From contig CAYZNT010000005.1 in the NCBI GenBank assembly GCA_964479735.1, positions 68,194 to 132,193 on the forward strand: DNA of 64,000 bases. Reading direction: 5' to 3'. Source of the stretch: an uncultured Clostridia bacterium (lineage in GTDB: Bacteria > Acidobacteriota > Aminicenantia > UBA2199). Under the pieces are notes generated by a model. That model made no database searches. It worked only from the letters and a program-made list of their open reading frames with translations, and was not told the origin of the DNA. Every line of letters starts with the position of its first letter. The stretch's first letter is position 1. The position numbers were made by a program, and so were the translations under genes. This document shows positions 2,318-61,705 of the stretch, in pieces.

Positions 2318-2346
2318 TTGACTTTTCGTCCCCGCCCCTCTATCAT
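2318..2346 (+). promoter_or_regulatory. sigma70-type promoter of the chemosensory operon (leaderless start)
   Basis: TTGACT (2318-2323), exact 17-nt spacer, TATCAT (2341-2346). The ATG at 2356 lies 9 nt after the -10, so the transcript should start at or within about 3 nt of the ATG. No Shine-Dalgarno sequence. Confidence 0.5.
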
Positions 2347-2355
2347 GGCAGGGCG

Positions 2356-3105
2356 ATGAGAAAAATCATTTTTGCCAATCGCAAGGGCGGAAGCGGAAAG
2401 ACAACCGTCGTGGTCAACATCGCCTTCCTGCTCGCGCAGAAACGGCGCCGCGTGCTGGTGATCGACCTCGATTCACAATCGCACTCCACCTTCTACCTGG
2501 GGGGCGCCCCCGACGTGTCCGCGCACACCCTGCAGGGGCTTCTCGACGGATCGGAGCCGTTGGCCGCGCTGGTCCAGCCGACCCGCCATGACCACCTCAG
2601 CCTGCTGCCCTCCACCCGCCACATCGCCGAGCTGAATGAGCGCATCGGCGAGCGCGTCACGTTTCTCGCCGAGGCGCTGGCCGGGGACCTGCCGTTCGAC
2701 TACGTGCTCATCGACCTGCCGCCCTCGCTGGAAAAGATCGTCCTGTGCGGGCTGATCGCCGCCGACGAGGTGCTCATTCCGCTTCAGACCCATTTTTTCC
2801 CGATGCAGGGGCTGGCCCAGCTGGTGCAGCTCGTTACCGAGATCAACCAGCGCTGGAACCCCGGATTGCGGATGAGCGGGATCATCCCCACCCTCTACAA
2901 CGAGCGCACCCGAATCCACCGCGGCGTCATCGACGAGGTCGAGCGGACTTTCGGCCGGAAAATGGTGCTGCCGGGCATCCCCTTCGACATCCGCCTGGCG
3001 GAAGCGCCCAGTTTCCGCGAGCCGATCGCCGTCTACGCGCCCCACAGCAACGCCGCGCGGGCATTCGCCACCCTGGCCGCCCGGATTCTGAGAATGGAGG
3101 CATGA
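2356..3105 (+). CDS. ParA/MinD-family P-loop ATPase (chemosensory-array partitioning type, ParC/PpfA-like)
   Basis: Deviant Walker A KGGSGKTT at the N-terminus and VIDLDSQ switch region. First gene of a che operon and 4 nt from the next ORF. Confidence 0.8.
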   Translation: MRKIIFANRKGGSGKTTVVVNIAFLLAQKRRRVLVIDLDSQSHSTFYLGGAPDVSAHTLQGLLDGSEPLAALVQPTRHDHLSLLPSTRHIAELNERIGERVTFLAEALAGDLPFDYVLIDLPPSLEKIVLCGLIAADEVLIPLQTHFFPMQGLAQLVQLVTEINQRWNPGLRMSGIIPTLYNERTRIHRGVIDEVERTFGRKMVLPGIPFDIRLAEAPSFREPIAVYAPHSNAARAFATLAARILRMEA

Positions 3106-3109
3106 CGGC

Positions 3110-3652
3110 ATGAAAGCCAGGAAAGGACTGGGCATGGGCATGCAGGACCTCCTGCGGTTGACCATGGGAGCGGAGCCGGAGGCCCCTGAGCGTCCTCCCA
3201 CCGGGACGGCAGCCCGGCGCCCCAAGCCGGCGGTTGGACGCAGGTCGCAAGCCGCAACACCCGTTCCGGCCGGGGACCCATCCGCCGCCCGTCGCCGGGA
3301 GCTCGAGGAAGAGAACGATCGCCTGCGCCGCCGGCTCGAGCTGGCGGAGGCTGCCGGCGGGGAACCGTCGCCTGCCGTGGACGGCGAGGCGCTCTACCTC
3401 GCCGCGCTGGGGGCATTGAAAGAGGGGAGGGCCGCCGAGGCCCTGAAACAGCTGCTGGTTTTGGTTCACTTCCAGCCCGGGCACGTCAAGGCGTGGAACA
3501 ACCTGGGCGTGGCGTTCTACGAACTGGGCCTGGGCGACGAGGCCGGCGCCGCGTTCCGGCGCGTGCTGGAACTGGAGCCGGATCACCCGGCGGCCCGTGA
3601 GAACCTGCTGGCACTCGAGGCCGGCCCGGAACCGACAGGAGGCGACTCATGA
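3110..3652 (+). CDS. TPR-repeat protein with N-terminal Ala/Pro/Arg-rich and coiled-coil segment
   Basis: Two to three TPR-like helical hairpins (AEALKQLLVLVHFQPGHVKAWNNLGVAFYELGLGDEAGAAFRRVLELEPDHPAA). Overlaps the downstream gene by 4 nt (ATGA). Confidence 0.7.
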   Translation: MKARKGLGMGMQDLLRLTMGAEPEAPERPPTGTAARRPKPAVGRRSQAATPVPAGDPSAARRRELEEENDRLRRRLELAEAAGGEPSPAVDGEALYLAALGALKEGRAAEALKQLLVLVHFQPGHVKAWNNLGVAFYELGLGDEAGAAFRRVLELEPDHPAARENLLALEAGPEPTGGDS

Positions 3653-60233: not shown

Positions 60234-60272
60234 CCACCCGGCCGCGGCGCGGCCCACGGCCGGCCGGGCGGT

Positions 60273-60301
60273 TTGTCAAACGGTCCGGCATCTGGTATAA
60301 C
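60273..60301 (+). promoter_or_regulatory. sigma70-type promoter with extended -10, leaderless start of the sigma-54 regulator gene
   Basis: TTGTCA (60273-60278), 17-nt spacer, TGGTATAAC (60293-60301). The ATG at 60308 is 6 nt after the -10 hexamer. Confidence 0.5.
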
Positions 60302-60307
60302 CGGCAC

Positions 60308-61705
60308 ATGGACAACGTCAAGGTGCTGGTGATCGACGACGAGAAGAACATCCTCGAATCGGTGAGGATGGTGCTGTCCCACGAGGGGTACGCGGTCGAG
60401 ACCGCCGCCGATGGCCTGGCCGGCATCGACTTGTTCAAGCGCACCGCCCCCGACATCGTGCTGCTCGATGTCAAGCTGCCCGGCCAGGGCGGCATCCAGA
60501 TCCTGCGCACCCTGAAGGAAATCCAGCCGCTGGCCGAGGTGATCATGATCTCCGGCCACTCGGGCATCGAGGAGGCCGTGGAGTCATCCCGGCTCGGCGC
60601 CTTCGATTTCCTCGAAAAGCCGCTGTCGCGGGACAAGCTGCTGCTGACGGTTCGCAATGCCGCCGAGAAAACGTCGCTGCTCAAGGAGAACTACAGCCTC
60701 CGCTCCCTTTCCGAGCGCAAGTACCAGCTGGTCGGAGCCGCCCCGGTCATGGAGAGGATGCGCGAAACCATCCGTCGCGTCGCCCGCAGCGACTCCACGG
60801 TGCTGATCACCGGCGAGAGCGGCACCGGCAAGGAGCTGATCGCCCGCCAGATCCACCAGCTCTCCTCGCGGGTGAACGCCCGTTTCGTGCAGGTCAACTG
60901 CGCCGCCATCCCCGACGAGCTGATCGAGAGCGAGCTGTTCGGCCACGAGAAGGGTTCCTTCACCGGCGCCCACGAGAAAAAGATCGGCAAGTTCGAGAGC
61001 GCCCACCGCGGCACGATCTTTCTCGACGAAATCGGCGACCTGAGCCTGAAGGCGCAGGCCAAGGTGCTGCGGGTGCTGGAAGAGGGGGAGGTACAGCCGG
61101 TGGGCTCCGCCGAGGTGAAGAAGGTCAACGTGCGCGTCATCGCCGCCACCAACAAGGACCTGGCCGGGGAGATCCGCCGCGAGCGTTTCCGCGAGGACCT
61201 CTTCTTCCGCCTCAACGTCGTCCCCCTGCATTCGCCGCCGCTCCGCGAGCGGCCCGAAGACGTGCCGATTCTGGTGGAGCATTTCATCGGCTATTTCTCG
61301 GAGGAGAACAACTTCCGGCGCAAGCGCTTCACACCCGGAGCGCTGCAGCGCATGGTCGCCTACGACTGGAAAGGCAACGTGCGCGAACTGCGCAACCTGG
61401 TGGAGCGGATGCTGATCATGTGCGAGGGCAGCGAGATCGGCGAGGCGGACCTGCCGGCCCACCTTCGCCCGGCGACGGGAACGGCCGCCGGCGCCGCCTG
61501 CGCCACCGCCCGCCTGTGGAAGGATTTCAAGCAACTGGCCGAAAAGGCCTTCTTGGAGAGCAAGCTCCAGGAGTTCCACTTCAACATCGCCCGCACCGCG
61601 CGGGAAATCGACCTGCCCCGCTCCAACCTCTACAAAAAGATCGCGTCTCTTGGTATAATGATCCCGCAACCGGCAGCGGATGAGGAACCGCCCCCGTCCT
61701 CGTGA
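60308..61705 (+). CDS. sigma-54-dependent response regulator (NtrC/NtrX family)
   Basis: Receiver (VLVIDDE...LLDVKLPG), AAA+ sigma54-interaction domain (GESGTGKE, ESELFGHEKGSFTGA GAFTGA motif) and C-terminal Fis-type HTH. Confidence 0.9.
   Translation: MDNVKVLVIDDEKNILESVRMVLSHEGYAVETAADGLAGIDLFKRTAPDIVLLDVKLPGQGGIQILRTLKEIQPLAEVIMISGHSGIEEAVESSRLGAFDFLEKPLSRDKLLLTVRNAAEKTSLLKENYSLRSLSERKYQLVGAAPVMERMRETIRRVARSDSTVLITGESGTGKELIARQIHQLSSRVNARFVQVNCAAIPDELIESELFGHEKGSFTGAHEKKIGKFESAHRGTIFLDEIGDLSLKAQAKVLRVLEEGEVQPVGSAEVKKVNVRVIAATNKDLAGEIRRERFREDLFFRLNVVPLHSPPLRERPEDVPILVEHFIGYFSEENNFRRKRFTPGALQRMVAYDWKGNVRELRNLVERMLIMCEGSEIGEADLPAHLRPATGTAAGAACATARLWKDFKQLAEKAFLESKLQEFHFNIARTAREIDLPRSNLYKKIASLGIMIPQPAADEEPPPSS
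61651..61659 (+). promoter_or_regulatory. extended -10 TGGTATAAT for rnpB
   Basis: Lies 7 nt upstream of the P1 5' strand of RNase P RNA, inside the 3' end of the regulator CDS. Confidence 0.5.

Follow-up and report, generated by a model that had tools for sequence, protein, structure and literature searches.

Promoter boxes abutting start codons suggest leaderless genes among Shine-Dalgarno-led genes in a 64-kb stretch of an uncultured Aminicenantes-type bacterium

A 64-kb stretch of contig CAYZNT010000005.1 (assembly GCA_964479735.1), from an uncultured bacterium of the Acidobacteriota (Aminicenantia), was analysed in full and is called the window hereafter. In nine of its protein genes, the start codon (ATG or GTG) follows 5-9 nt after the end of a promoter −10 box. 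It is likely that these genes are leaderless, being expressed from sigma-70 promoters that abut their start codons, and that they are mixed with genes whose leaders hold a Shine-Dalgarno (SD) site. The window has a GC content of 63-70% and contains ~56 protein genes as judged by a codon-usage scan, as well as three tRNAs and a class A RNase P RNA (rnpB, 61672-62042). The best relatives of its UbiA-family, sigma-54 regulator, and GNAT-like proteins come from Candidatus Aminicenantes/Acidobacteria metagenome-assembled genomes at 55-82% protein identity, and contigs identical to window sequence are present in three Logan sequencing-run assemblies (SRR29761469, SRR29761460, and SRR30230066).

The original prediction, made from the letters of the window, had described start-abutting promoters mixed with SD-leadered genes as a feature of this organism that is useful for calling start codons, and all in-silico tests agreed with this. 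The sequences and coordinates it quoted were checked base by base and all matched. Four further promoters of the leaderless type had been missed, namely those upstream of ATG 857 on the minus strand, the Sir2 ATG 24821 (minus strand), the methyltransferase GTG 46800 (minus strand), and the PmbA/TldD-like ATG 54791 (plus strand), which brings the set to the nine genes listed in Table 1. In the order of the table, the spacings between box and start codon are 5, 9, 7, 7, 9, 6, 6, 7, and 6 nt, and seven of the starts are ATG and two GTG. No SD core (GGAG, GAGG or AGGA within −20 to −4 of the start) was found before any of them, and so short a gap between box and start leaves no room for such a core. 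GGAG-type SD sites are carried by about half of the remaining window genes. Leaderless-type genes thereby make up ~9 of the 56 genes in the window (16%).

The mechanism proposed here is that a housekeeping sigma-70-type RNA polymerase would read a −35 box TTGnnn, a 17-bp spacer, and a −10 box TAnnnT that is often extended by TGn. At the nine genes, transcription would start at, or within ~3 nt of, the start codon, as inferred from the 6-8 nt by which a −10 box usually precedes the transcription start. With no SD site on such an mRNA, translation would take the leaderless route, the ribosome together with initiator tRNA recognising an AUG or GUG at the very 5′ end. Promoters of the same type lying at least 17 nt upstream would give leaders with GGAGG-type SD sites, and transcription of rnpB would begin where its P1 helix begins. 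What the DNA itself displays is a set of motifs in excess over chance, start codons at a conserved spacing from them, and no SD sites before these starts; the putative transcription start sites and the translation route rest on these features.

The promoter motifs were far more frequent than expected by chance. The exact extended −10 box TGGTATAAT occurs four times (31976 and 46870 on the plus strand, 54739 on the minus strand, and 61651 on the plus strand), with 0.00 copies expected and none in any of 100 dinucleotide-preserving shuffles of the window. For the looser form TGNTATAA, six copies were counted where 0.16 were expected; the two additional sites are TGGTATAAC upstream of the regulator (60293) and TGCTATAAA at 24837 on the minus strand. 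A scan for consensus promoters (−35 box, 16-18 bp spacer, −10 box) returned 15 sites against ~4.8 expected. Hexamers resembling a −10 box (TAnnnT, differing from TATAAT at no more than one base) numbered only 25 on both strands of the 64 kb, and most of these lie just upstream of genes. At most of the leaderless-type −10 boxes, a −35 box TTGnnn lies at a distance of exactly 17-18 bp. These boxes belong to sigma-70-type promoters of the ordinary kind, in many of which the −35 box lies 17 bp upstream. The idea that the motifs are functionless AT-rich words arising by chance, or copies of a dispersed repeat, has nothing in its favour apart from the shortness of the motif; the observed counts were reached in none of the 100 shuffles, the sequences flanking the individual copies are dissimilar, and each copy is kept at the orthologous position in other genomes, so that this explanation is already refuted and deserves next to no weight. 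A longer dispersed repeat that includes the TGGTATAAT copies was considered separately and rejected, as the flanks are unrelated.

Not all of these boxes are of one kind. A TG one base before the −10 hexamer (positions −15/−14) is present at six sites (24837 and 54739 on the minus strand; 31976, 46870, 60293, and 61651 on the plus strand), and absent at the parA, M23, acyP, PmbA, methyltransferase, and gene 857 boxes. Four of the extended sites have A at position 2 and T at position 6 of the hexamer; the regulator and Sir2 sites are without the final T. The original prediction of seven near-identical extended −10 boxes therefore holds for the four TGGTATAAT sites and the one TGGTATAAC site, but parA (TATCAT), M23, and acyP have plain hexamers. 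The regulator hexamer (60296-60301) reads TATAAC, and at the corresponding place in the related loci L076-L080 (~9989-9994) it reads TATAAA or TATAAC, so that a final T was never seen in six genomes. The Sir2 hexamer at 24829-24834 on the minus strand (TATAAA, within TGCTATAAA) likewise lacks it.

The position of the hexamers relative to start codons was assayed within the window by counting, in distance bins 3′ of each hexamer, the start codons that open a reading frame of at least 70 codons. A start at +5 to +9 followed 7 of the 25 hexamers, compared with 1.76 expected from all positions (P=0.0013). The positional enrichment near starts that had been predicted was therefore found, but not in this bin alone: the bins at 15-19 and 20-24 nt were enriched too (6 and 5 hexamers), because the hexamers are promoters in general. 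By itself, this window-only test cannot separate leaderless from leadered promoters and was dismissed as stand-alone proof. The distribution of distances was more telling. Distances between box and start in the window are bimodal, at either 5-9 nt or at least 17 nt with nothing real between, and in seven related loci, taking 126 genes with public calls, they fall at 4-9 nt, never at 10-15 nt, and broadly from 16 nt onwards. This is the pattern expected if an mRNA has either no leader or one long enough for an SD site.

Table 1. Promoters and associated features in the window; numbers between boxes are spacer lengths in bp, and distances in nt run from the end of the −10 box.
Feature	Coordinates	Strand	Promoter and start	Type
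Butyrate/acetate-kinase-like gene (promoter)	863-891	−	TTGAAA-17-TATAGT, 5 nt, ATG 857	Leaderless type
parA-like gene	2318-2358	+	TTGACT (2318)-17-TATCAT (2341-2346), 9 nt, ATG 2356; 10/12 consensus matches	Leaderless type; no SD
Sir2-family deacylase	24819-24857	−	TTGACT-17-TGCTATAAA, 7 nt, ATG 24821	Leaderless type
UbiA-family gene	31956-31994	+	TTGCAC-17-(TGG)TATAAT, TGGTATAAT 31976-31984, 7 nt, ATG 31992	Leaderless type
M23 peptidase	34650-34690	+	TTGCGT-17-TACAAT (34673-34678), 9 nt, ATG 34688; plain −10, TG 5 nt before hexamer	Leaderless type
Methyltransferase	46798-46836	−	TTGACA-18-TATAGT, 6 nt, GTG 46800; 11/12 consensus matches	Leaderless type
acyP	49062-49108	+	TTGCGG-17-TATAAT (49085-49090); GTG 49097 at 6 nt, ATG 49106 at 15 nt	Probably leaderless type (from GTG)
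PmbA/TldD-like gene	54755-54793	+	TTGCGC-17-TACAAT, 7 nt, ATG 54791; divergent from sulfotransferase promoter	Leaderless type
Sigma-54-dependent response regulator (NtrX-like)	60273-60310	+	TTGTCA (60273)-17-TGGTATAAC (60293-60301), 6 nt, ATG 60308	Leaderless type
GNAT-like gene	46870-46898	+	TGGTATAAT 46870-46878, 17 nt with GAGGTG (46887-46892), ATG 46896	Leadered, SD
Sulfotransferase	54692-54739	−	TGGTATAAT 54739-54731, 36 nt with AGGAGG, GTG 54694	Ordinary leadered gene, SD
Leadered promoter example	16752-16801	+	TTCACG-17-TATGAT, 18 nt with GGAGG, ATG 16799	Leadered, SD
tRNA-Lys/tRNA-Glu promoter	41568-41611	−	TTGACA-17-(TGG)TACATT, ends 15 nt before tRNA-Lys	tRNA
tRNA-Leu promoter	981-1023	+	TTGACT-17-TAGGGT, ends 11 nt before mature 5′ end	tRNA
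rnpB (RNase P RNA class A)	61651-62044	+	TGGTATAAT 61651-61659	RNA gene

The extended box was found on both sides of this divide. Among the six TGNTATAA sites, three lie directly before a start codon, two stand before leaders with an SD site (17 and 36 nt), which are also kept in orthologues, and one drives rnpB. The original prediction had treated TGGTATAAT as a signature of leaderless genes, and this did not hold: the exact box is the organism's consensus strong extended −10 promoter and no mark of leaderless genes, because the GNAT-like gene, the sulfotransferase gene, and rnpB use it too. The GNAT-like gene had itself been grouped as leaderless; its ATG lies 17 nt downstream with an SD site between, and its orthologues in L081 and L082 keep TGCTATAAT, a distance of 17-18 nt, and the SD site, so that the gene, as far as its layout tells, has a short leader with SD and is not leaderless. 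Its homologues are 376-380 aa long. The sulfotransferase gene had been predicted to combine the same box with a normal leader and SD, which is what was found, and orthologues in L076, L077, and L078 keep TGGTATAAT and a leader of 31-37 nt with SD. Seven further promoters were found 17-36 nt before starts, mostly with an SD site (one is given as an example in Table 1). Compared with known extended −10 (TGn) sigma-70 promoters, TGnTATAAT is common to both and the −35 box can be weak, as in rnpB (TACAAA); no mechanistic difference is evident here, but the regulator and Sir2 hexamers end in C and A instead of T.

The layout of the leaderless-type promoters was then compared with orthologous loci (labelled L with a number) in Aminicenantes/Acidobacteria metagenome genomes with GC contents of 41-67%, and for the question of whether the positioning exceeds chance this comparison is what decides. 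Upstream of UbiA, TG[G/C]TATAAT was present in all 17 Aminicenantes-type orthologous loci (GC 0.49-0.67), and the gap between box and ATG was 6 nt in 16 of these 17 and 10 nt in L014, compared with 7 nt in the window. The invariant columns of the UbiA alignment are TG.TATAAT, the ATG, and a single T in the −35 region, while the six bases between box and ATG vary freely. The regulator showed TTG(TC/AA)A-17-TGnTATAA[A/C]-N6-ATG in six of six sequences (GC 0.41-0.67). Orthologues of the M23 peptidase (662 aa) have TA[C/A]AAT followed after 8-9 nt by ATG in 14 loci, with 9 nt in most, and an EamA-type gene that has no orthologue in the window has TGcTATAgT 6-7 nt before the start in 12 loci of the relatives. 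The PmbA orthologues in L076 and L078 have TAGAAT, 8-9 nt, and ATG; a search of metagenomes with the PmbA/TldD-like protein returned only relatives that are 25-32% identical and too distant for promoter comparison. The spacing of UbiA, the NtrX-like regulator, M23, and EamA is kept across 26 GC points and 30-45% protein divergence. Among 45 UbiA homologues from outside the clade, a −10-like box 6-7 nt before the candidate start was seen in nine, all of them Chloroflexi (L019, L021, L031, L033, L035, L053, L054, L057, and L062; Anaerolineae, Roseiflexaceae, and Flexilinea). The other 36 of the 45 lacked such a box, including a few that are labelled Chloroflexi or Anaerolineae too.

These comparisons bear on the alternative that the boxes are not used as promoters at all, transcription coming from further upstream and the AT-rich box merely serving as an unstructured region for ribosome loading without SD, or the start being reached by translational coupling. 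The UbiA ATG of the window does lie 8 nt after the stop of a same-strand reading frame, many internal operon genes in the window are also without SD, and an AT-rich stretch before starts is a general feature of GC-rich genomes. However, the −35 box lies exactly 17-18 bp from the box in most cases, the TGn extension is invariant in orthologues, and the spacer is fixed in length and variable in sequence. The identical motif also stands before rnpB and the tRNA genes and 36 nt before the sulfotransferase start, and the UbiA box is intergenic in relatives, where the ATG is separated from the end of the upstream reading frame by 77-270 nt in 14 of the 15 loci that could be measured, and by 35 nt in L014. 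Unused boxes are therefore quite improbable. The narrower idea that the UbiA box is kept merely as an upstream stop codon or for coupling was ruled out by the non-coding gaps in relatives. In the window, the TATAAT of the UbiA promoter contains the stop codon TAA (31981-31983) of the upstream reading frame, which is publicly called as a protein of 686 aa.

Some relatives have no recognisable −35 box upstream of the UbiA extended −10. In two groups of loci, L003, L004, L007, L011, and L018 on the one hand and L005, L012, L045, and L060 on the other, where no TTGCA −35 box was seen, T-rich short tandem repeats lie directly upstream. They occupy the stretch 15-50 nt before the UbiA −10 box and resemble TTCACTTT in one group and TCACTAAT/TTACTAAT in the other. 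These repeats may be an UP-like element or the binding site of a regulator.

A second alternative accepts the promoters as real and holds that some starts are mis-assigned, a downstream ATG being used after a short leader. Alternative ATGs do exist for UbiA (32001) and acyP (49106), and the GNAT-like gene does start 17 nt downstream of its box, with SD. The N-termini argue otherwise. UbiA begins with MRAMGAFVASLRPRQWVKNV, which is in register with MQALKYFLISMRPKQWVKNV of the relatives from residue 1, the Pfam AAA_31 profile of ParA matches from profile position 1 at residue 1, and the Pfam receiver-domain profile of the regulator starts at residue 6. Nearly all of the best 120 regulator homologues are 459-470 aa long (most 464-466 aa), a 465-aa protein identical to the regulator is already in NCBI, and the longest regulator reading frame is 75 codons too long. 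For M23, the publicly called start, ATG 34667, falls within the promoter (−10 region). The original prediction had moved this start to 34688, and both the orthologues and the signal-peptide-like N-terminus that begins there (MRDRLLLILALLGLPLAAA) agree. The kinase-like gene (3-857, running off the window; Pfam Acetate_kinase match) has the N-terminus MTKRHILAINPGSTSTK from ATG 857, and its butyrate-kinase-type N-terminus lines up with those of relatives; support for the start at the methyltransferase GTG is weaker than for the other leaderless-type genes. The downstream alternative starts, moreover, are likewise without SD. Mis-assigned starts are accordingly also unlikely, though marginally less so than unused boxes.

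For acyP, the ATG ~15 nt from the box had been taken as the start, and here the GTG at 6 nt is likelier because of length and alignment: from the GTG the protein is 90 aa long, as is its syntenic homologue, and its N-terminus aligns residue for residue with that of the orthologue (VKTMRYIV / MKIYHYIV). The acyP start is thus probably GTG 49097, of leaderless type, and the ATG would not be the start.

Several points weigh against leaderless expression of all nine genes. Gaps of 9 nt at parA and M23 would mean a leader of 2-3 nt or an unusually distal start site; for parA, the predicted mRNA is either leaderless or has a leader of at most 3 nt. At the regulator and at Sir2, the last base of the box is C or A, although a T in this place is normally critical. 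The closeness of UbiA to the upstream reading frame in the window would permit read-through and translational coupling at that gene, and the positional enrichment in the window, although significant, is not exclusive to the 5-9 nt bin.

The same promoter type led to rnpB. The Rfam model RF00010 matches with 234.9 bits (gathering score 100) over model positions 1-367, starting at 61672, which is 12 nt after the TGGTATAAT box. The 16-bp P1 helix GCAACCGGCAGCGGAT / GTCCGCTGCCGGTTGC begins 6 nt further upstream, at 61666, the 7th nucleotide after the box, exactly as originally predicted. In five related loci an extended P1 begins 4-11 nt after the same box, with compensatory changes. Judging from this layout, the rnpB RNA is probably made with a mature-type 5′ end. 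The tRNA boxes of the window lie 11 and 15 nt upstream and therefore point to short tRNA 5′ leaders, unlike rnpB; tRNA-Leu was for this reason rejected as a 'leaderless' case.

The regulator gene, which has its stop codon at 61705, overlaps at its 3′ end with rnpB, taking in both the rnpB promoter and the first ~40 nt of the RNA as counted from 61666. In the regulator, TTGGTATAATG of the rnpB promoter is read as L-G-I-M, and across loci the codons are (L/S)-G-I-(M/I), while the first ~34 nt of the Rfam match encode the regulator tail ...ADEEPPPSS. The same overlap (61651-61705 in the window) was found in L076, L079, and L080 (~11341-11398). In L077 (18800-18865) and L078 (15700-15760), rnpB has been relocated and still has ~45 nt of sequence resembling the regulator 3′ end as its promoter, and the regulator of these two loci keeps a tail that resembles the rnpB 5′ end. 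A tail motif GI[M/I]...ADEES recurs in ~85 of the best 120 regulator homologues; therefore, the overlap is probably widespread in the clade. A shallow literature search found no protein-coding overlap of rnpB. Taken jointly, the claims that the leaderless layout is an ancient, gene-specific trait of the clade and not a drifting genomic 'style', and that one and the same bases encode a protein tail and the 5′ strand of ribozyme helices P1-P2 in well over half of the 120 homologues, appear evenly poised between holding and failing.

Some neighbouring features were also recorded. The window has two back-to-back divergent promoter pairs, one between the methyltransferase and GNAT-like genes (46807-46878) and one between the sulfotransferase and PmbA-like genes (54731-54783), and both combine one leaderless-type promoter with one leadered TGGTATAAT promoter. 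In L076 (4263-4706), the intergenic region between the sulfotransferase and PmbA orthologues measures 445 nt compared with 96 nt in the window. Short tandem repeats (GGTGTACGGTGAACGG..., CAACTCTT..., GGAATTT...) fill this region, and the window equivalent has none of them. A reading frame of 62 codons (36952-37140) with two CxxC pairs, missing from the lists of open reading frames, has a stop that overlaps the ATG of the next gene (37137) and a promoter TTGACA-17-(TGC)GAAAAT followed by a 20-nt leader with GAGGT (region 36903-37140); from its appearance, we take it to be Trm112/YcaR-like. The related locus L079 (41% GC) contains the Rfam elements PYLIS_2 and PYLIS_3 (105-204 and 1673-1772, both on the minus strand) inside methyltransferase genes of mtbB/mttB type, which suggests that this genome uses pyrrolysine.

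Genomes that mix leaderless and SD-led genes are well documented in Actinobacteria and Deinococcus, and were predicted for Acidobacteria in 2011. In the latter study, leaderless genes of the TA-led class made up 9.7-19.4% in all three Acidobacteria genomes examined (Zheng et al., 2011; PMC3160421); the signature is the same as here, and the ~16% of the window falls within this range. The signature is also that of group C in GeneMarkS-2, defined by a Pribnow box 6-8 nt from the starts of first-in-operon genes and SD sites elsewhere (Lomsadze et al., 2018; PMC6028130). Both studies consist of genome-wide statistics without Aminicenantes, whereas the present case combines a 64-kb window with a comparison of orthologues.

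Among Actinobacteria, a quarter to a third of the transcripts are leaderless in Mycobacterium tuberculosis (Cortes et al., 2013; PMC3898074) and Corynebacterium glutamicum (Pfeifer-Sancar et al., 2013; PMC3890552), the latter having TGnTATAAT promoters, 33% leaderless mRNAs, and 21% GUG among leaderless starts (PMC3890552). These genomes are likewise GC-rich, with TAnnnT just upstream of ATG or GTG, use of both AUG and GUG, and SD genes mixed in. Initiation on a 5′-terminal AUG or GUG is established for leaderless mRNAs in Escherichia coli, mycobacteria, and corynebacteria, and the actinobacterial start-site data have been used to correct start codons (PMC3898074, PMC3890552). The actinobacterial sets rest on mapped transcription start sites, whereas the window is known from its sequence; the −35 box TTGnnn is well recognisable in the window but weak or absent in the actinobacterial sets, and the lineage differs, being Acidobacteriota/Aminicenantes here. 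Among the papers open to searching, none mentions both Aminicenantes and leaderless. The window is thus a new lineage example of a known phenomenon and no surprise to a specialist, and the general understanding of transcription and translation is unchanged by it.

Its value lies partly in annotation, as long spurious upstream extensions of reading frames, such as those at M23 and the regulator, are common in this GC-rich uncultured lineage and a start can be recognised reliably by a −10 box 5-9 nt before it. For the biology of the group, the Aminicenantes probably join the bacteria in which leaderless translation serves a sizeable share of first-in-operon genes, and this predicted state can persist gene by gene over deep divergence.

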